Positions 20,139-64,000 of a stretch of 64,000 bases of DNA are shown piece by piece. The position numbers and the translations under genes are program-made. The notes under the pieces were generated by a model that saw nothing but the letters and a program-made list of their open reading frames with translations, did no database searches and was not told the DNA's origin. The stretch comes from Candidatus Iainarchaeum sp. Its GTDB lineage: Archaea; Micrarchaeota; Micrarchaeia; Anstonellales; Bilamarchaeaceae. Location of the stretch: the NCBI GenBank assembly GCA_028686985.1, contig JAQUBA010000001.1, positions 81,194 through 145,193 of the forward strand, in the 5' to 3' direction. The stretch's first letter is position 1; every line of letters starts with the position of its first letter.

Positions 20139-22085
20139 ATGGGAAAAACAAAATCCAATTTCTTTCTCCAGGGCCGCAATGCGCTCGCCATCTGCATCGC
20201 CATTTATGCGATCCTCCTCATCCGTGCTTTCAGCGTTTCCTACTTTCCGGGCGGCGTTGACACCGCAACCCACCTCTTCCAGATAGGGCTCATCGCAGAG
20301 GAAGGGCTCACCCCCTGGAACCACTGGTGGTATGCCGGGCACCCCCTCCTTGAGCAGTATCCGCCCCTTTCCCATCTCGCCGGGGCCGCGATATCCGGCA
20401 TTGTGGGTGTGGAAAACGCATACAAGCTCATATTTTCCATAGCATTCATCCTCATCCCCATCTCCTTCTTCCTCCTGCTCAAGGAATTTGATTTCACCGA
20501 GGAACAGAGGGCTCTTGCATTATATCTATTCTCCCTCTCCCCCGTCTTCGCTTACGACCTCAACGGAGGCCTCCTCTCCGCAATGCTAGCCCTTCCCTTC
20601 TGCTTCCTTTTCCTGAAATACATGATTCGCGCCTTCAATGCTAAAGAATGGATAAAGCCCGCCGCCCTTTCCGCGGTGTTCCTCGCAATCGCGGCCCTCG
20701 CCCACCTTTTCATGCCTTTCGCCGCAGCCATGTTCGGCTTCATCTATCTGGTTTCCTACAGCCCCTCCGCCCCTTCCCTGAAGCGCTTCGCATCCATAAT
20801 GATTTTCACGGCAGCGCTCGCCGGCTTCTTCTGGTTCCCACTCGCATTGAACTATTCCATCGGCGACACGCCCATCAACTTTTCCGAATCCTCGCTTGCG
20901 CAGGTCGCTACAATCGCACTCGCGCCTTTCGGTAGGGCGTTCGCCGTATACATAAACCTCGTTTCCGTCCTCTCCGCCCTCATCCTCTCGCTGCTTTCCA
21001 TTTTCTCCCTGCTCTCTACATACCGTGCCAAAGATTCTCCTTCTCTCCGCTTCTTCCTGCTCAGCATTTCCGCAATCATCCTCTGGTCCACCTTCCTTCC
21101 GCACAGCGACCAGGCTGGGGTGAAGCTCCCGCTGTTCATACCAATGGTTTTCGCCATCCTAATCCCGAAATACATCAGCCCCGTAAATATCCTCTTCCCC
21201 CTCTCCGCCCTATTTCTCGCCCTCCTGCTCGTTTCCTCATTTCTGGCAGAGCCCTCGTACGTCTCACCTGAGACATTTGGCATGGCGGAGTGGGCGGCAA
21301 GCCAAACCCAGCACCGCGCGCTCCTCATCCCGCCGGGGATGGGCCTGCTTGCGCAATACGAGGGCAGGCCGAACATGGGCGCCTTCCTCTATGATGCATA
21401 CATGCTCCCGCACTATTTCCACAAGGAAATATACAACGGCTGGTTCGCGGAGGCCAGCCCGCGCAGCCTTGCGGATGTATCATTCACCTGCTCCGGGAAA
21501 AAGTCCTTTTCCGAAATCATGGGCGGGTTCGGCATCCTCAGCACCATAAACCTCGGAAAGATGAAGGAATGTGAAGTGCCGGCTTCACCGGAGGAATTCT
21601 GCAATGCGCTTCAGTCTGGAAGCGTGGATACCATCATCGCCAATTCCAATTTCCCCGAAGTGGTTTCATTTGCGGATTCCGCTCCCTGCCTCTCCCGCTC
21701 CAGTGTTCATAGTCCGCTCGTCGCCTACAAGGTGGTGGGGAGCAAGCCCTACCTCAGCCAGAACTGGAGCTATGAAAAGAAATCCGGAACCATCTCCATA
21801 CATTTCAACGGCCCATTTTCCGGGACGCTCTCAATCTCCGAGAGCCATTATCCATACTGGAAGGCATACCTCGATTCCAATCAGGTCCCAGTGGAAAAAA
21901 GCAGCGACGGCTTCCTCAGCATTCCCATACAGGTTTCCGGAGGCCCCCACGAGCTGGAGCTTTCCTATTCCCCCAACAACTATTTCGGCGCATTCTCCCT
22001 CATTTCCGCGATTGCATGGCTTGCAGCCCTGTTGCTGCTGAACGCATCCCCGCGCAAAAAATGCCTGCAACCCGCACGAGATTAA
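20139..22085 (+). CDS. Polytopic membrane protein, GT-C-like / PTPS-related membrane-domain family (putative glycan transferase or polymerase)
   Basis: About 12 hydrophobic segments followed by a soluble C-terminal domain of about 250 aa. N-terminal TPWNHWWYAGHPLLEQYPPLSH resembles the COG5617-type membrane family (from memory). Confidence 0.55.
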   Translation: MGKTKSNFFLQGRNALAICIAIYAILLIRAFSVSYFPGGVDTATHLFQIGLIAEEGLTPWNHWWYAGHPLLEQYPPLSHLAGAAISGIVGVENAYKLIFSIAFILIPISFFLLLKEFDFTEEQRALALYLFSLSPVFAYDLNGGLLSAMLALPFCFLFLKYMIRAFNAKEWIKPAALSAVFLAIAALAHLFMPFAAAMFGFIYLVSYSPSAPSLKRFASIMIFTAALAGFFWFPLALNYSIGDTPINFSESSLAQVATIALAPFGRAFAVYINLVSVLSALILSLLSIFSLLSTYRAKDSPSLRFFLLSISAIILWSTFLPHSDQAGVKLPLFIPMVFAILIPKYISPVNILFPLSALFLALLLVSSFLAEPSYVSPETFGMAEWAASQTQHRALLIPPGMGLLAQYEGRPNMGAFLYDAYMLPHYFHKEIYNGWFAEASPRSLADVSFTCSGKKSFSEIMGGFGILSTINLGKMKECEVPASPEEFCNALQSGSVDTIIANSNFPEVVSFADSAPCLSRSSVHSPLVAYKVVGSKPYLSQNWSYEKKSGTISIHFNGPFSGTLSISESHYPYWKAYLDSNQVPVEKSSDGFLSIPIQVSGGPHELELSYSPNNYFGAFSLISAIAWLAALLLLNASPRKKCLQPARD

Positions 22086-25255: not shown

Positions 25256-25297
25256 TTTTTAATGTTTTTGCGGCTAATAGATGCAAAAGGTGTGTAT

Positions 25298-26146
25298 ATG
25301 CGTTATATTCTCCTGGCAGGGCTGGTTGCAACGATGCTTCTTTTGTTCGGGTGCGCGGGCGGCGAAGGCCCGGTTTCGTGCTCCTCGGATTCCAACTGCC
25401 AATCGTGGCAGCAGTGCGCGGACGGCGTGTGCGCAGCGAAGGAGGGATACTGCGGGCAGGCGTCCGACTGCGGCGCCGGGCAGTCCTGCAATTCCACGAC
25501 GCACCTCTGCAGCCTTGCGTCCGGCACATGCACACAGAACTCGGACTGCGACGTGCGCTGGCAGGCGTGTTCCCAGGGCTCATGCACGCCTCTCGCCGGC
25601 TTTTGCGGCTCCAACGCAGACTGCCGTGCCGACATAGAGACGTGCGGCGCGACAACGCACAGGTGCTCCGTGGTGCCCGGCAGGTGCGAGAACGATTACG
25701 ATTGCGACTCATGGGAGGGATGCGACACCGTGAACAAGGTCTGCATACCCTTTGAGGGCAGGTGCAACGATAACGTGGACTGCGTCTCCTGGCAGGGCTG
25801 CGACGTGGAATCCCATTTCTGCAGGCCCAGGTCCGGCTTCTGCATAAACACCGCCAACTGCGCAGGCTGGCAGACGTGCAACCTTGACACGAACCGCTGC
25901 ATGACCGCCCCGGGCTACTGCGGCCACGATGCGGACTGCAACTCCTGGCAGTATTGCGAGGCTACGAACAGCCACAGGTGCATCGCCAAGCCGGGATACT
26001 GCGATTCCAACTCAAACTGCAATTCCTGGGAGGTCTGCTACACAGCAACGCACAGGTGCACCCCGAAGGCGGGGTATTGCAACACAAATGCGGACTGCGA
26101 TTCCGGAACCTATTGCAACATGGGTAGCCACAGGTGCGAGGGCTGA
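25298..26146 (+). CDS. Cysteine-rich secreted lipoprotein with ten tandem 4-Cys repeats
   Basis: MRYILLAGLVATMLLLFGC is a signal peptide plus lipobox. It is followed by 10 units of about 24-26 aa with consensus G(Y/F)C-x4-DC-x2-WQ-x-C-x4-(T)H(R)C-x5. About 41 Cys in 282 aa. Confidence 0.75.
   Translation: MRYILLAGLVATMLLLFGCAGGEGPVSCSSDSNCQSWQQCADGVCAAKEGYCGQASDCGAGQSCNSTTHLCSLASGTCTQNSDCDVRWQACSQGSCTPLAGFCGSNADCRADIETCGATTHRCSVVPGRCENDYDCDSWEGCDTVNKVCIPFEGRCNDNVDCVSWQGCDVESHFCRPRSGFCINTANCAGWQTCNLDTNRCMTAPGYCGHDADCNSWQYCEATNSHRCIAKPGYCDSNSNCNSWEVCYTATHRCTPKAGYCNTNADCDSGTYCNMGSHRCEG
25379..26143 (+). repeat. Diverged tandem coding repeat (about 72-78 bp unit, 10 copies) encoding the 4-Cys module
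   Basis: The protein-level period C-x5-C-x5-C-x4-7-C recurs 10 times without interruption. Confidence 0.75.
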
Positions 26147-26154
26147 ACTGGCCA

Positions 26155-26421
26155 TTAGTCCCGTTCCCGCCACATCCTCCTTTTCTTGTTCAGCAGTTCC
26201 TTCGCTATGGTCAGGATCTGGTTGCTTAGGCGCAGCCCCTCGTCCGGGCTCAGCTTCATCGCAGCCGTCCCCGTGGTGTTCGCCACCCTTATGGTGATTA
26301 CTCCATCCCTGGGGAACCCGTTTGAACTCTGGGGTCCATCGCTCTCTATGCGGAGGATGGTCCGGTGCTGCTCGCCCTTGTCATCCTTCCACCAATGTAT
26401 TATCTCATCCTCTACGGGCAT
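26155..26421 (-). CDS. Hypothetical 88-aa protein
   Basis: ORF with GGAGGTG 7 nt upstream of the ATG and host-like codon usage. Sits between the two Cys-rich genes. No recognisable family. Confidence 0.5.
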   Translation of the reverse strand: MPVEDEIIHWWKDDKGEQHRTILRIESDGPQSSNGFPRDGVITIRVANTTGTAAMKLSPDEGLRLSNQILTIAKELLNKKRRMWRERD

Positions 26422-26600: not shown

Positions 26601-28286
26601 ATGGCTGAAGTGCTACCTGGTTACCAGAATAGAAGTGGCGGCGGCGGGAAGGGCCTGTTTTTCATAGTGGGCATTCTCCTCGGCGCCCTGGCCCTGTTCC
26701 TCCTGTTCTACTTTTTCGGGCAGCAATGCTGCGGAACGCAACAGGCAACCGGCGTGTTCCAGGGAGGCGACACCACGATAATCCGCGATTCCGGCGGCAA
26801 CATCATCACCTACAATCCGCGCGACCAGGGTACGAGCACAACCTACACGGACCCGTCCGGAAGGGAGAGGGAGCTCCTCTGTTATGAATCGTTATACTGC
26901 GTGGAGGAATGTCCCGGCTGCACAAATGAAACATGTGAGCAGGGGGAATGCGTCCCCGACGGCTCGAACTGTGGCTATGGCACGGTTTCGCGCACAACCC
27001 TCGCCCGCCTCACGGATTACAGCACGTTCTATGGAGACTGCTGCGAAGGGTATGCCTGCGTCAACGGCTACTGCAGGAGGGGCGAGTGCATTAACCGCGA
27101 CGGGATGTGCGGCTACGGCCCCACGAGCAACACCTACGTCGCGAACAATCCGACTTATTATGGGGAATGCTGCGAGGGCTACGATTGCATAGACGGCTTC
27201 TGCACCCCACCGACGCAGGGGGAATGCGTTGAAGAGGGGGTTTCCTGCGGCTACGGCGCAACCACAGTGACCGCGCTGATTCCCGATGTATCCAATTACT
27301 ACGGCAGATGCTGCGGCGACCTCGCCTGCGTGGACGGCACGTGCCAGCAGACCGACGAATGCACGGATGTCGGTTCGTTCTGCGGCTACGGCCCCAGGAC
27401 TTATACCAACGATTACCAAATGCCTACGTATTACGGCGAATGCTGCGGCGACTACCAGTGCGTCAATGGCTACTGCACTCCGCCCGGCCAGACGTGCATA
27501 CAGACCGGGGGCACATGCGGCTACGGGACCACCTACACAACAGTGGCTCCTCCCGCAGGCGCGACCTACTACGGGACCTGTTGCCAGGGCGACTACTGCT
27601 ACAACGGCAGGTGCGTCCCTGAGCAGGGATGCAGCGGGCAGGGGCAGACCTGCGCAACCGGCCAGATAGAATGCTGCGAAGGATACACCTGCACGGACGG
27701 TATCTGTGCAACCCCATGCACCCTGAAGGGCGCCAGGTGCACCTACGATTCTGAGTGCTGCGAGGGCACTTGGTGCATGGACGGCTCCTGCACAGACGCT
27801 TGCGTCAGCACCGCCGGCAGCTCCTGCCTCCCCGGCAGGAAAGACTGCTGCGAGGGCATGTTGTGTTCCAACGGAAGGTGCGTGAGCGAGTGCAAGAAGA
27901 GCGGCTCCTGCTCCTCAGATTCCGACTGCTGTGACGGCTATTACTGCAGCGACAACCGGCAGTGCACGCCCACGCCTTCGTGCGAGACCTCGGGCAGGTG
28001 CTCAGGCGATTCCGACTGCTGCGATGGATACTACTGCAGCGAAAACGGCTACTGCACCGTGGTCCCGTCCACCTGCTACGACAGCGACGGGGGCAACTAC
28101 TATTCCCCGGGCGGCTATGCGGTCGGGTACCTGGACGGCGTGTTCGGCACGTATTACGACTATTGCGAGGACGATTACCATGTGATGGAATACACGTGCG
28201 CCGCCAGCTCTAACCAGGTAATCAGCGCGGCATACACCTGCGCTTACAGGTGCGCGGACGGGGCGTGCAGCCAGTCTTATCGGTAG
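26601..28286 (+). CDS. Membrane-anchored cysteine-rich surface protein with ten knottin-spaced 6-Cys modules
   Basis: ATG is about 35 nt downstream of TTTATAAG (26561..26568). TM anchor GLFFIVGILLGALALFLLFYFF. Ten modules of C-x5-7-C-x5-22-CC-x4-C-x4-5-C, then a C-terminal CYDSDGGNYY...DYC...EYTC domain. About 73 Cys in 561 aa. Confidence 0.75.
   Translation: MAEVLPGYQNRSGGGGKGLFFIVGILLGALALFLLFYFFGQQCCGTQQATGVFQGGDTTIIRDSGGNIITYNPRDQGTSTTYTDPSGRERELLCYESLYCVEECPGCTNETCEQGECVPDGSNCGYGTVSRTTLARLTDYSTFYGDCCEGYACVNGYCRRGECINRDGMCGYGPTSNTYVANNPTYYGECCEGYDCIDGFCTPPTQGECVEEGVSCGYGATTVTALIPDVSNYYGRCCGDLACVDGTCQQTDECTDVGSFCGYGPRTYTNDYQMPTYYGECCGDYQCVNGYCTPPGQTCIQTGGTCGYGTTYTTVAPPAGATYYGTCCQGDYCYNGRCVPEQGCSGQGQTCATGQIECCEGYTCTDGICATPCTLKGARCTYDSECCEGTWCMDGSCTDACVSTAGSSCLPGRKDCCEGMLCSNGRCVSECKKSGSCSSDSDCCDGYYCSDNRQCTPTPSCETSGRCSGDSDCCDGYYCSENGYCTVVPSTCYDSDGGNYYSPGGYAVGYLDGVFGTYYDYCEDDYHVMEYTCAASSNQVISAAYTCAYRCADGACSQSYR
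26949..28073 (+). repeat. Tandem coding repeat: 5 long (about 45 aa, CGYG...YYGxCC) plus 5 short (about 28-31 aa) six-cysteine modules
   Basis: Modules read directly from the translation, e.g. CSGQGQTCATGQIECCEGYTCTDGIC and CKKSGSCSSDSDCCDGYYCSDNRQC. Confidence 0.75.
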
Positions 28287-33324: not shown

Positions 33325-34134
33325 TCAATAGATTACTATGACCGGCTCCGGGTATCTCCTGACATTCCCAGAATAAACCCTGTTCTTGAGCATCTCCAGC
33401 ATCAGCCGCCTCGCCTCGTCCTTGTTCTCAAACAGCCACCCCAACTTCATGTTCAGCCGCACCACCCTATTGGGAATAAGATGCCTTGTGGATTTGGGCG
33501 GAAAAGGGACCCCGCTCTTCGCCCTTTCCACCACTTCCTTCTTCGTATATGCCCTCCTGTAGAGGGCGGAAAGGCCGTCGTTGAGTATGGTGTCCCCGAA
33601 ATCGTCCGCAACATAGGTGACGTCCGGGTTGGTGCTCACGCCCGTGGAATCCACAACCGCCTTCTGCGCCTCCAGCAATTCCTTTATGGTGGAATACTTC
33701 CCCGGCGAGAGCAGCCACGCCTCCTTCCCCTGCCCGTTCTTCTTCCCGAGCATGAATGCCGCCCTGGACTCATTCAGCGCATCCATTCCGGCATTGAAAT
33801 CAACTTTCTCCATTTCCACCCCGGCCCCCTGGAACTGCCCCACCTCAAACGTCCTTGAGCACGGGTACCAGGTGCCCAGCTCAATCTTCGGGTCCTCATA
33901 ATCCACGGGCTGCACAGCCGCGTGGGGGCATTCCATGTCCTTCAGCACGGTCATGCGGTGGTTGCCGTCCAGGACCACGTGCTCCTTCTCGTCCATTATT
34001 ATCGGGTCCACCATCTGCCCGATGTTGAACATCGCCTCCTTCAGCCGCTTCAGGTTCTTGGGCACAATCTCCTCGTGCTGCAAAAGGATGGAGGTGTCCA
34101 CTACATCCAGTCGCCTGACCATTTCTTCAAGCAT
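33325..34134 (-). CDS. ParB/Srx-fold protein, candidate ADP-dependent serine kinase (SerK-like)
   Basis: LLQHEEIVPKNLKRL...VVLDGNHRMTVL is a ParB/sulfiredoxin-type motif. 1-nt spacer to the aminotransferase gene, so it is in the same operon as serA. Confidence 0.5.
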   Translation of the reverse strand: MLEEMVRRLDVVDTSILLQHEEIVPKNLKRLKEAMFNIGQMVDPIIMDEKEHVVLDGNHRMTVLKDMECPHAAVQPVDYEDPKIELGTWYPCSRTFEVGQFQGAGVEMEKVDFNAGMDALNESRAAFMLGKKNGQGKEAWLLSPGKYSTIKELLEAQKAVVDSTGVSTNPDVTYVADDFGDTILNDGLSALYRRAYTKKEVVERAKSGVPFPPKSTRHLIPNRVVRLNMKLGWLFENKDEARRLMLEMLKNRVYSGNVRRYPEPVIVIY

Positions 34135-34261
34135 AGGAACCCCTGCCCCGCTTTCCCGCCTAACGTTTATAAAACATCACAAGGGCGGAGTTATGCTGGA
34201 GAGAATACCGGGAGAATTTCATGGACACCATTATCTTCGAAGGGCCATATCTCTTACGTAA

Positions 34262-35529
34262 TTATTTTCTTTCTGCAGAGCCGCATTTCTTCGCTTGCGA
34301 GCCTCAGTAATGCCTCCATTGGATTGTGTAAGAACGTCCAATCTAGACTTTTAAAAGGCATAAATGGATGATAGAATGCAAACATTTATATATTGTTATC
34401 AATATTTAATCATAAACTCGTCCATTTTTGGACAAGAAGATAGCCAAGAGATCTGGTGGGACTATGGAAACGTATGCATTTTGGAACAATAAAGGCGGCA
34501 CGGGCAAGACAAGTCTGGCATTTCAGGCTATTACACGATACGCTGAAAAACACCCAAAGAAGCGGATACTTGCAATTGACATCTGCCCGCAAGCCAATCT
34601 TTCTGAGCTGATGCTGGGAGGCTTGAATAGGGGTAGCACCAAACTGCTCGCCCTTCATGCTCAAAAACCAAGGCGTAGCTTGGGTGGATACTTTCAGCTT
34701 CGCTTGCTATCGCCATACACCCCACCTCAGTTTAAGGCTAGCGATTATATCATCACACCGAATGCATTCAATACAGGAATTCCTTCTAACATTGACTTGG
34801 TATGTGGTGATCCTATGCTCGAGCTGCAAGCCAACGCGGTCAATAGTCTGGCGAATCAGGATGTTCCTGGTACGAAAGCATGGATCGCCGTCATTGACTG
34901 GTTGAAAACCTTCTTAGATCAGATAGAAGATAGATATGATGTTGTATTTATGGACTGCAATCCAAGCTTTTCAATGTACACCCAGATCGCCTTAGCATCA
35001 ACCAAGAAAATTATTTTGCCGGTCATGGCTGACGATTCTTCGCGCCGAGCAATTCAAAATGCGTTTTGCCTGATTTATGGGTTGAAGCTGCCTTCAGATA
35101 TTTACACCGCTTATGCTTTTGCCACTAAGCTTAAACTTGCGGACCGCCCACTCCCCAAAGTCCATTTAATTGCAAAAAATAGATTAACTCAATACATGGT
35201 GACGGCATCAGCCTATTTCGCAGTGTTAGCTGCAATTGATAACGACGTTCGACAATTGCTGGCAACAAATCCCGAATTCTTTTCGTTTACGAAATGGGAT
35301 GAAGGTTTCGTGGAAGTCAAGGATTTCCAGACCACAGGTGTCGTTGCCTTTGCGAAGGGTTTACCGTTCTCACGAGTAAAAGCAGGAAGGCAGTTTATCG
35401 ACAAGCACAGAGTTCAGGTAAAGCAGGAGTACTTAGATGACAGTATCCGGCATCTAGATCGGCTCGTTGCTAAACTATGAGCAGTTAGAACCAAGTCTGA
35501 TCTTACAATAGGGGCTTACAAAACCAGGA
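34262..35529. other. Low-GC patch (probable foreign insertion) abutting the 3' end of tRNA-Arg
   Basis: Visibly AT-richer than both flanks, with long AT runs at 34262..34427. Contains only the ParA-like gene. No integrase or att repeat found by eye. Confidence 0.5.
34464..35480 (+). CDS. ParA/MinD-superfamily ATPase (orphan)
   Basis: METYAFWNNKGGTGKTSLAF is a deviant Walker A at the N-terminus; VFMDCNPS is a Walker B-like motif. ATG at 34464 preferred over TTG at 34428. Codon usage differs from neighbours. Confidence 0.75.
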   Translation: METYAFWNNKGGTGKTSLAFQAITRYAEKHPKKRILAIDICPQANLSELMLGGLNRGSTKLLALHAQKPRRSLGGYFQLRLLSPYTPPQFKASDYIITPNAFNTGIPSNIDLVCGDPMLELQANAVNSLANQDVPGTKAWIAVIDWLKTFLDQIEDRYDVVFMDCNPSFSMYTQIALASTKKIILPVMADDSSRRAIQNAFCLIYGLKLPSDIYTAYAFATKLKLADRPLPKVHLIAKNRLTQYMVTASAYFAVLAAIDNDVRQLLATNPEFFSFTKWDEGFVEVKDFQTTGVVAFAKGLPFSRVKAGRQFIDKHRVQVKQEYLDDSIRHLDRLVAKL

Positions 35530-35604
35530 ACGGGCCCGGTGGGATTTGAACCCACGACCTACATCTTAGGAGGATGCCGCGCTATCCAGGCTGCGCTACG
35601 GGCC
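35530..35604 (-). tRNA. tRNA-Arg (anticodon CCU)
   Basis: Reverse complement GGGCCCGTAGCGCAGCCTGGATAGCGCGGCATCCTCCTAAGATGTAGGTCGTGGGTTCAAATCCCACCGGGCCCG folds as a cloverleaf. Anticodon loop CTCCTAA; T-loop TTCAAAT. Confidence 0.9.
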
Positions 35605-35691
35605 CTAATAAGCATAAGTATAGGTGCTGCAAGAGTTTAAAATCGTTCCCAGCGCCGGAGCATTTTTATCCCATGCCGCCCAAATACGCAC

Positions 35692-36153
35692 GTGGCGGGC
35701 AATAAGCTCATTTACGCGATGGCGGCATGCGGCGTATTGGCAGCCGCATTCCTACTCCTCACAAACGATTCCCACCCCGGAAAGGAGGAAATCACGTTCA
35801 CGAACGGCCGGGGGCAGGCAGTCCCGGTCTATGTGGAAGTCGCTGACGACATGGATGAGCTGGGGCGGGGCCTGATGTTTCGGGAATCCCTCCCGGAGGA
35901 CGAGGGGATGCTTTTCGTGTTCCCGCGCCCGGGGAATTATGCATTCTGGATGAAGGACACGCTGGTTCCGCTGGACGCAATCTACATGGACGAGAACAGC
36001 ACGGTGGTTGGCATAGTCCAGATGGAGCCCTGCATTGCGGACCCGTGCCCCGCGTATGCCCCGGATTCCGAGGCCCTCTACGTATTAGAGGTAAATAAGG
36101 GATTCAGCGAGAGGCACGGGATAGAACTCGGCAGCAGGATGACGCTTAAATAA
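35692..36153 (+). CDS. DUF192-family protein with N-terminal signal/anchor
   Basis: GMLFVFPRPGNYAFWMKDTLVPLDAIYMD...LEVNKG. GTG start. Confidence 0.7.
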   Translation: MAGNKLIYAMAACGVLAAAFLLLTNDSHPGKEEITFTNGRGQAVPVYVEVADDMDELGRGLMFRESLPEDEGMLFVFPRPGNYAFWMKDTLVPLDAIYMDENSTVVGIVQMEPCIADPCPAYAPDSEALYVLEVNKGFSERHGIELGSRMTLK

Positions 36154-63904: not shown

Positions 63905-64000
63905 TGGGCCCATGGAGATTTGAACTCCAGACCTACGGCTGTCTTAGAACCTGTTGTATTAGAGCAGGCCATATAAGACCGTCGCTCTAACCAGCCTGAG
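63905..64000 (-). tRNA. tRNA-Ile (anticodon UAU) with a 31-nt canonical 37/38 intron; 5' end (about 10 nt) truncated by the window edge
   Basis: Reverse complement ...CTCAGGCTGGTTAGAGCG-ACGGT-CTTATA[TGGCCTGCTCTAATACAACAGGTTCTAAGAC]A-GCCGT-AGGTC-TGGAGTTCAAATCTCCA-TGGGCCC-A. Intron 63941..63971; anticodon at 63973..63975. Confidence 0.75.

Follow-up and report, generated by a model that had tools for sequence, protein, structure and literature searches.

We describe a gene for a cysteine-rich, membrane-anchored protein built from ten tandem six-cysteine modules, which lies in a 64,000-nucleotide stretch of an archaeal assembly (Candidatus Iainarchaeum sp., Bilamarchaeaceae, Micrarchaeota; GenBank GCA_028686985.1, contig JAQUBA010000001.1, positions 81,194 to 145,193 of the forward strand) that we call the window. 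The open reading frame (ORF) runs from an ATG to its own stop codon and encodes 561 residues (Table 1); an in-frame TTG nine codons upstream of the ATG at 26601 is a possible alternative start, and the identical 561-residue product in assembly GCA_028712065.1 is called from the ATG. A second cysteine-rich repeat gene lies immediately upstream, with a small ORF between the two. We take the gene to be real because it has 36 homologues, invariant cysteines, and a dN/dS of 0.18 when compared with its 74%-identical orthologue (P0001); on the last two of these we reject an artefactual or non-coding explanation.

Table 1. Positions of the target gene, of the parts of its protein, and of the two reading frames upstream (aa, amino acids; L001, L005, and L006 are the loci of three close relatives)
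Feature	Position in window	Strand	Basis or remark
Whole coding sequence, 561-aa Cys-rich membrane-anchored protein, putatively at the surface	26601..28286 (including stop codon)	+	ORF list; identical protein in GCA_028712065.1
N-terminal transmembrane anchor, residues ~17-39, signal-anchor type	26649..26717	+	Kyte-Doolittle; AlphaFold2 helix
Conserved juxtamembrane region, residues 45-116, 5 Cys (94, 100, 104, 107, 112)	26733..26948	+	Alignment
Five long modules, residues 117-338	26949..27614	+	Regular expression; C-x6-C-GYG-...-YYG-x-CC-x4-C-x4-C
Five short toxin-sized modules, residues 344-485	27630..28055	+	Regular expression; C-x5-7-C-x5-6-CC-x4-C-x4-5-C
C-terminal beta-rich domain, residues ~490-558	28068..28274	+	AlphaFold2; predicted distal tip
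Second Cys-rich repeat gene, 294 aa, 41 Cys	25262-26146	+	Immediately upstream of target
88-aa ORF between both Cys-rich genes	26155-26421	-	88 aa in L001 and L006; 103 aa in L005

The N terminus carries a hydrophobic segment whose 19-residue Kyte-Doolittle maximum is 2.8, at residue 18, and which AlphaFold2 models as a helix over residues 16-42; we infer an N-in/C-out topology for this anchor, with the array outside the cell. Matching the pattern C-x5-7-C-x5-22-CC-x4-C-x4-5-C to the protein as a regular expression finds exactly ten non-overlapping, back-to-back modules from residue 117 to residue 485, against a mean of 0.11 and a maximum of 3 in 20,000 shuffled versions of the same protein. 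The first five are long (residues 117-158, 163-201, 209-248, 254-292, and 299-338; 39-42 residues each) and carry a CGYG...YYGxCC element in a second loop of 19-22 residues, and the last five are short (residues 344-369, 373-397, 401-427, 431-455, and 461-485; 25-27 residues each). Their consensus contains elements of the D-x-D-CC and G-Y-x-C type, with aromatic residues directly after the CC pair and, in the long modules, also before it; among 237 short modules of the family the commonest spacings are 6,5,0,4,4 and 5,5,0,4,5. The linkers between modules measure 3-7 residues (3-5 between short modules), are rich in T, P, Q, and E, and show no recurrent dibasic or other cleavage motif; the one that follows module 1 reads RRGE. 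Tandem Repeats Finder reports no repeat in the gene at the DNA level.

Cysteine makes up 73 of the 561 residues (13.0%), of which 13 fall outside the array: a CC pair just past the anchor, five in the juxtamembrane region (residues 94-112), and six in the C-terminal domain (492-556). The ectodomain as a whole is composed of 13.9% Gly, 13.7% Cys, 11.2% Thr, and 9.7% Tyr, with just 0.8% Lys. A preliminary description of this gene, made from the letters alone, had already recognized the N-terminal anchor, the ten modules with their cysteine spacing, the CGYG...YYGxCC insertion in the second loop of five of them, and a cysteine content near 13%, all of which we recover, and the module peptides that it quoted are present in the protein. 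Its limits need two small corrections: the array, given as about 117-491, does begin at residue 117 and ends at Cys485, since Cys492 belongs to the C-terminal domain, and of the five toxin-sized modules, given as 25-26 residues, one has 27.

The juxtamembrane region has no match to a Pfam family and is modeled with low confidence by AlphaFold2 (predicted local distance difference test, pLDDT, 31-49), and in a 25-sequence alignment G66, G77, D84, G87, C94, Y99, and C100 are invariant. The C-terminal domain is predicted to form five strands (pLDDT 80-93) and bears the motif C-x-D-S-D-G-G...D-Y-C...E-Y-Y-C...C-x-G-C-x2-G-A-C. This domain also occurs, as a four-cysteine unit of about 68 residues repeated in up to 10 copies, in other DPANN proteins (Candidatus Woesearchaeota, Ca. 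Bilamarchaeum dharawalense); the proteins with the repeated CxDSDGG domain are P0055, P0064, P0085, P0096, P0114, and P0116, and one relative adds a dockerin. It has no relative in Pfam, NCBIfam, or the PDB, its profile finding among PDB sequences only insignificant Sushi/CCP-like matches (E 2.8), and it looks like an undescribed domain of DPANN surface proteins. In a set of close orthologues (P0007-P0014) an extra knottin-like module takes the place of the C-terminal domain, which suggests that the distal tip is exchangeable and that the anchor and the array form the constant core.

Likeness of the modules to knottins

All ten units show the compact six-cysteine C-C-CC-C-C framework that characterizes knottins, or inhibitor cystine knot (ICK) peptides, and three independent in silico lines, a sequence profile, a predicted structure, and a fold comparison, agree in supporting the knottin-like character that the preliminary description had proposed. 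A profile built from 69 short modules and searched with hmmsearch against PDB chain sequences gives 93 matches at E<=10, and nearly all of the 60 matches listed are ICK peptides. The best is Xt3a, a double-ICK toxin from a remipede, which aligns over both of its domains (E 1.5e-8), followed by Aca toxin 1 (E 1.7e-5) and delta-conotoxin TxVIA (E 2.2e-5), with Wrightide R1, theraphotoxins, omega-conotoxins, and gurmarin further down. The main non-knottin among the matches listed is Dickkopf-4 (DKK4; E 4.9e-4), and these 60 include no defensin, EGF, Kunitz, Kazal, granulin, or three-finger chain.

The AlphaFold2 model of the full protein, computed with 25 homologues, has a low global predicted TM-score (pTM, 0.24), as one would expect if the chain is flexible, and the short modules within it reach a pLDDT of 75-90. 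In the DSSP assignment of this model every module ends in a two-strand beta-hairpin between Cys5 and Cys6 (for example, E363-365/E368-370). A Foldseek comparison with the PDB, which the preliminary description had suggested as a check together with AlphaFold, superposes individual modules on EETI-II and MCoTI-II, two knottins of squash, and on engineered proteins with a cystine knot (1w7z, 1h9h, 1mcv, and 2it8), with a root-mean-square deviation (rmsd) of 0.8-1.2 Å over 23-26 columns, a target-normalized TM-score of 0.69-0.74, and a probability of 0.97-0.99. The I-IV/II-V/III-VI disulfide pairing of a knottin is implied by this superposition of the model on EETI-II at about 1 Å, and would apply to the modules if the model is right. 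A long module, modeled separately from a 66-module alignment, has a pLDDT of 84; its Foldseek and PDB-sequence matches are weak and mostly to ICK toxins (U5-scytotoxin, muO-conotoxin MfVIA, asteropsin G, psalmotoxin), which fits a predicted knottin core with an expanded second loop.

Curated families do not capture the modules. Scans of Pfam and NCBIfam with the protein, its sub-regions, and about 25 relatives find no family above threshold. The sole Pfam match of the window protein is to Dickkopf_N, below threshold (18.1 bits against a cutoff of 25), and it has no NCBIfam match; Toxin_12 (PF07740), Conotoxin_I2, Toxin_23, and other curated knottin and toxin families in Pfam do not reach their gathering thresholds, and a precomputed PF07740 match is found in two distant homologues.

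Few mini-protein scaffolds are as stable, or have been engineered as much, as the knottins, which are familiar from the venoms of spiders and the seeds of plants. The archaeal modules share with the ICK peptides of spiders (theraphotoxins), cone snails (O-superfamily conotoxins), squashes (the trypsin inhibitors EETI-II/MCoTI-II), and other plants (alpha-amylase-inhibitor knottins such as Wrightide R1) the six-cysteine framework, near-identical loop lengths, a unit of 25-27 residues, and a consensus of the D-x-D-CC / G-Y-x-C type. Known knottins, however, are free, secreted, one- or two-domain toxins and inhibitors of eukaryotes (predicted also in bacteria and viruses), whereas the archaeal protein fuses ten modules behind an anchor and includes five with a second loop of 19-22 residues and the GYG...YYG element. 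The tandem ICK proteins DkTx, Xt3a, and pi-hexatoxin-Hi1a, like the archaeal array, join disulfide-rich domains head to tail by short linkers; DkTx is also among the Foldseek matches of the model. They belong with the SCREPs, tandem disulfide-rich proteins that are secreted by definition and mostly have two domains, whereas the archaeal protein has ten tandem disulfide-rich modules between unrelated N- and C-terminal regions and an N-terminal hydrophobic helix modeled as a transmembrane anchor and not as a signal that is cleaved off. Only bacterial and eukaryotic members are reported in the papers on SCREPs (Maxwell et al. 2018, PMC6262176) and ScrepYard (PMC9885460). By the account of the dedicated knottin database in 2017, no knottin had been found in archaea and no bacterial knottin had an experimental structure (PMC5753296).

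Conservation in Micrarchaeota and similar arrays elsewhere

A search of 5.8 billion proteins returns the 36 homologues, at 28-74% identity, every one of them annotated as hypothetical and all those with a named source belonging to Candidatus Micrarchaeota or Bilamarchaeaceae. Scanning one genome per GTDB species with a 10-sequence alignment retrieves 10 loci, all in Micrarchaeota-type metagenome-assembled genomes and including the complete genome of Ca. Fermentimicrarchaeum limneticum Sv326. The archaeal origin given in the preliminary description is thus borne out, and in the searches made the family is found only in Micrarchaeota. A hydrophobic N-terminal segment is present in 35 of the 36 homologues, and one subgroup ends it with a lipobox-like LLGC; an anchor or lipobox across the homologues fits a membrane-tethered, extracellular array.

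In the 25-sequence alignment each of the 60 module cysteines is invariant or almost so, and the relatives have 8-12 modules in unchanged order. The low dN/dS given above shows that the gene is under purifying selection. With cysteines excluded, the same module compared across species is 0.41-0.72 identical, and different modules within the window protein are only 0.27 (short) or 0.37 (long) identical. Because identity between species at one position exceeds identity between positions within one protein, and because the gene has no repeat at the DNA level, we conclude that the array is old and that each of its positions is individually constrained.

Arrays of the short-module type extend well beyond this family. 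An exhaustive HMMER search of 1.84 billion cluster representatives with the family profile yields 1,864 proteins with E<=1e-3, a number that takes in matches to the C-terminal domain alone; 303 of them reach E<=1e-10. Among the best 143 matches outside the original set, 73 contain at least five short C-C-CC-C-C modules and 37 at least ten, and many of these distant proteins start with bacterial lipoprotein or twin-arginine (TAT) signals. The named matches are Myxococcota: P0046 (Myxococcota bacterium, 27 modules), P0195 (Archangium sp.), and P0099 (Myxococcales bacterium), with one further named match from an insect, Clastoptera arizonana. Arrays of Myxococcota and other bacteria are retrieved at E 1e-15 to 1e-40 and align to profile positions ~318-480. 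Bacterial lipoproteins in which 11-27 modules have knottin spacing, in many cases preceded by an N-terminal ZU5 domain, include P0046, P0057, P0059, P0062, P0086/P0195, and P0099. The distant array proteins are all annotated as hypothetical and give only sub-threshold scores to Conotoxin_I2, Toxin_12, and Dickkopf_N, and the repeats of the Myxococcota and other bacterial members match no curated family in Pfam or NCBIfam; judged by their sequences, the bacterial knottin-spaced arrays are apparently an unrecognized class of surface proteins.

These bacterial arrays (5-27 modules) have the same short-module pattern as the archaeal protein, in long tandem behind a lipoprotein or TAT signal, but they have neither the long type of module with GYG...YYG nor the juxtamembrane region or CxDSDGG tip, and in many a ZU5 domain is present instead. 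The resemblance could reflect either homology or convergence. Tandem knottin-like arrays also occur in eukaryote-like proteins, as seen in the pair P0044 and P0152: a protein of the spittlebug Clastoptera arizonana with 14 such modules, and a 1230-residue protein in which 18 modules are fused to a glycosyl hydrolase family 99 domain. In a comparison with predicted viral structures, Foldseek matches the full-length model, at E about 1e-7 to 1e-5 and a probability of ~1.0, to proteins from metagenomic pithoviruses and from a chloriridovirus that are labeled "transmembrane proteins"; the BFVD entries A0A481Z614, A0A481ZF02, A0A481Z618, and W8R9N5 give E 1e-7 to 1e-6 and a probability of 1.0. So far as predicted folds can tell, anchored arrays of this sort, made of small disulfide domains, may also be encoded by giant viruses.

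The polymeric knottin-like architecture is therefore, on the evidence of these searches, not unique to archaea. This qualifies the suggestion in the preliminary description that a polymeric, cell-anchored form would be a new architecture: it is in no curated family, and uncharacterized arrays of up to 27 modules exist in Myxococcota and others. What is restricted to the Micrarchaeota family and proteins closely related to it is the long GYG...YYG type of module, together with the juxtamembrane region and the layout as a whole. The fold is known; what is new is its ten-module, membrane-anchored use in an archaeon and the long-loop type of module.

A possible surface stalk and its alternatives

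We favor, with moderate confidence, the interpretation that the protein is a disulfide-locked, beads-on-a-string surface stalk or adhesin, with an exchangeable tip, of a tiny episymbiotic archaeon of the Micrarchaeota (DPANN). The single N-terminal helix, a type II anchor, would hold the protein in the cytoplasmic membrane with the remainder outside the cell, where ten independently folded mini-domains, each probably locked as a knottin by three disulfides, would follow one another in a chain; at its end would sit a small beta-rich domain of a kind common among the surface proteins of DPANN. The whole would behave as a stiff rod, resistant to proteases and denaturation. A single knottin is ~2-2.5 nm across, and ten of them with short linkers would span an estimated ~20-30 nm, the scale of the archaeal pseudoperiplasm plus the S-layer. 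The rod would then project a variable tip and Tyr-rich module faces away from the membrane, and the protein would most likely serve as a stalk or adhesin that makes contact with a surface or a host cell, and not to store free toxins. A Tyr-rich, Lys-poor, acidic surface and a variable tip fit a binding function.

The known S-layer protein of Micrarchaeota is a different, almost sulfur-free protein, which its authors speculate may be tethered by a second, membrane-anchored stalk protein (bioRxiv 10.1101/2021.04.28.441871). That speculation is compatible with a stalk role of the present family and is not evidence for it. A search of the literature on cysteine-rich surface proteins of DPANN or Micrarchaeota found nothing relevant, and a preprint of 2026 about horizontal gene transfer and cysteine-rich repeats, in which Micrarchaeota are mentioned, deals with another repeat, C-C-C-C-CC.

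Several observations weigh against the stalk interpretation or the knottin fold on which it builds. Relatives (isolates Sv319, Sv326, and Sv348) originate in deep, anoxic aquifers, a setting in which it is less evident that disulfides would form outside the cell. The Foldseek E-values are weak (0.5-3; 0.5-0.8 for the four structures named above), because the matches are only ~25 residues long; the full-length model is poor for the loop insertions of the long modules and for the juxtamembrane region; and AlphaFold2, in which disulfides are no explicit part of the modeling, may do no more than return the fold most often seen with this cysteine pattern. Finally, gene context over six loci yields no functional clue beyond the synteny of close relatives.

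The alternatives differ in which part of the interpretation they replace. One, a plausible sub-hypothesis that we nevertheless consider unlikely, is a narrower version of the adhesin: a multivalent, lectin-like surface protein whose modules, of the hevein or carbohydrate-binding module (CBM) type, would bind host glycans through the aromatics of CC-x-G-Y-x-C and YYG. The 9.7% Tyr of the ectodomain and the consensus aromatics that flank the CC pair would suit such a protein, wheat germ agglutinin, itself an array of hevein domains, appears as a weak Foldseek match of the whole array (rank 3, E 0.14), and sugar-nucleotide genes (epimerase, PGM/PMM) lie upstream. The agglutinin match is non-specific, however (rmsd 13.3 Å, TM-score 0.19), and the upstream sugar genes are housekeeping genes whose synteny does not extend to more distant relatives. 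Moreover, the modules have six cysteines where hevein/CBM18 has eight, the Ser/aromatic triad of hevein is not seen in them, and there is no Pfam match to chitin-binding or CBM families, PF00187 not appearing even at E<=1.

Another concerns the fold itself: the modules might be disulfide-rich and unknotted, with Dickkopf/colipase-like or laddered pairing, and resemble knottins in cysteine spacing only. We regard this as quite unlikely. The Dickkopf_N match of the window protein and the DKK4 match of the module profile would be in line with it, DKK4 is also among the Foldseek matches, and the knotted pairing is a predicted one. Yet Dickkopf N-terminal and colipase-fold domains, which give the modules weak sequence and fold matches and a Pfam score below threshold, have ten cysteines and a different topology, whereas the 25-residue, six-cysteine C-C-CC-C-C unit is the canonical ICK framework, and the large majority of profile matches and all high-probability Foldseek matches are true knottins.

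The preliminary description had offered three roles, adhesin, protease-resistant stalk, and precursor of free knottins, and the last has fared worst. As a polyprotein, the chain would be exported and cut between modules into free knottins that act as toxins, antimicrobials, or protease inhibitors against a host or competitors. Multi-knottin precursors are known in plants and animals, the short modules match free ICK toxins in size and pattern, and the RRGE linker after module 1 could be read in this way. We nevertheless find a precursor decidedly unlikely, because the 3-7-residue linkers share no recurrent cleavage motif, each module position is conserved as its own orthologue and not homogenized, conservation extends to the membrane anchor and to a distinct tip domain, and no peptidase, maturation enzyme, or peptide exporter is conserved beside the gene in five different contexts. 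Highly improbable, lastly, is a metallothionein-like thiol metal-binding protein or redox buffer with reduced cysteines: despite 13% Cys, close relatives from anoxic subsurface aquifers, and genes for a copper ATPase, a cupredoxin, and DsbD_2 a few kilobases off in one relative's locus, the strict cysteine periodicity, the conserved glycines and aromatics, and the predicted beta-hairpins are typical of folded disulfide domains, the anchor or lipobox would place the array outside the membrane, the ectodomain is rich in Tyr, and there is no match to a metallothionein or metal-binding family.

If borne out, a conserved archaeal family with ten knottin modules in one anchored chain would extend the knottin fold to the third domain of life, put it to a structural or adhesive use as a polymeric rod beyond the familiar toxin or inhibitor, and add a knottin variant with a long, conserved second loop. 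For DPANN biology the family offers a concrete, conserved, lineage-specific candidate for the poorly understood surface machinery of host contact, and the Myxococcota parallels suggest a far larger unannotated class of prokaryotic surface proteins. A bolder form of the proposal, which we put forward as a possibility well short of probable, is that the Micrarchaeota proteins are the archaeal branch of a large, unrecognized, cross-domain class of polymeric-knottin surface proteins (with Myxococcota lipoproteins and possibly membrane proteins of giant viruses), the array serving in DPANN as an S-layer-spanning, disulfide-locked stalk with an exchangeable host-recognition tip. Were this so, the class would provide a direct molecular handle on the attachment of episymbionts to their hosts, and the knottin module would be an ancient prokaryotic invention, not an innovation of eukaryotic defense or venom.

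Gene neighborhood and other features of the window

The cysteine-rich protein encoded immediately upstream has a lipobox-like LLFGC followed by ten repeats of ~26 residues with four cysteines each, C-x5-C-x5-6-C-x4-7-C (for example, CxxxSDCxSWQxCxxxxHxC), and matches the Pfam family DUF5885 (7.9e-14) and, weakly, TIGR04201 (Myxo_Cys_RPT). In three close relatives (L001, L005, and L006) a counterpart of 282-306 residues is found at the corresponding place, and the two cysteine-rich genes, with ten repeats each, may form a functional pair. The 88-residue ORF between them has no Pfam family. Further upstream are genes for an NAD-dependent epimerase, a PGM/PMM-family mutase, and a HAD hydrolase, and downstream are aTrm56, a DUF475/TerC membrane protein, and DUF1405. 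The block HAD, cysteine-rich gene, 88-residue ORF, target, Trm56 is syntenic in the same three close relatives and absent in more distant ones, and in one relative a paralogue of the target lies immediately downstream.

Just upstream of the epimerase and PGM/PMM genes, positions 20139-22085 (+) encode a 648-residue polytopic membrane protein with no Pfam match, which could be a glycosyltransferase- or oligosaccharyltransferase-like enzyme. Elsewhere in the window, G+C falls to 0.48 over positions 34001-36000, against ~0.57 in the remainder; this stretch coincides with a ParA/AAA_31-like gene (34428-35480) and a tRNA-Arg(CCT) (35531-35605), and may be the edge of an integrated element. At the end of the window ARAGORN calls a 91-nucleotide tRNA-Ile with anticodon AAT (63906-63996, minus strand) that Rfam does not report at its gathering threshold, and which may contain an intron, be cut off by the edge of the window, or be spurious.

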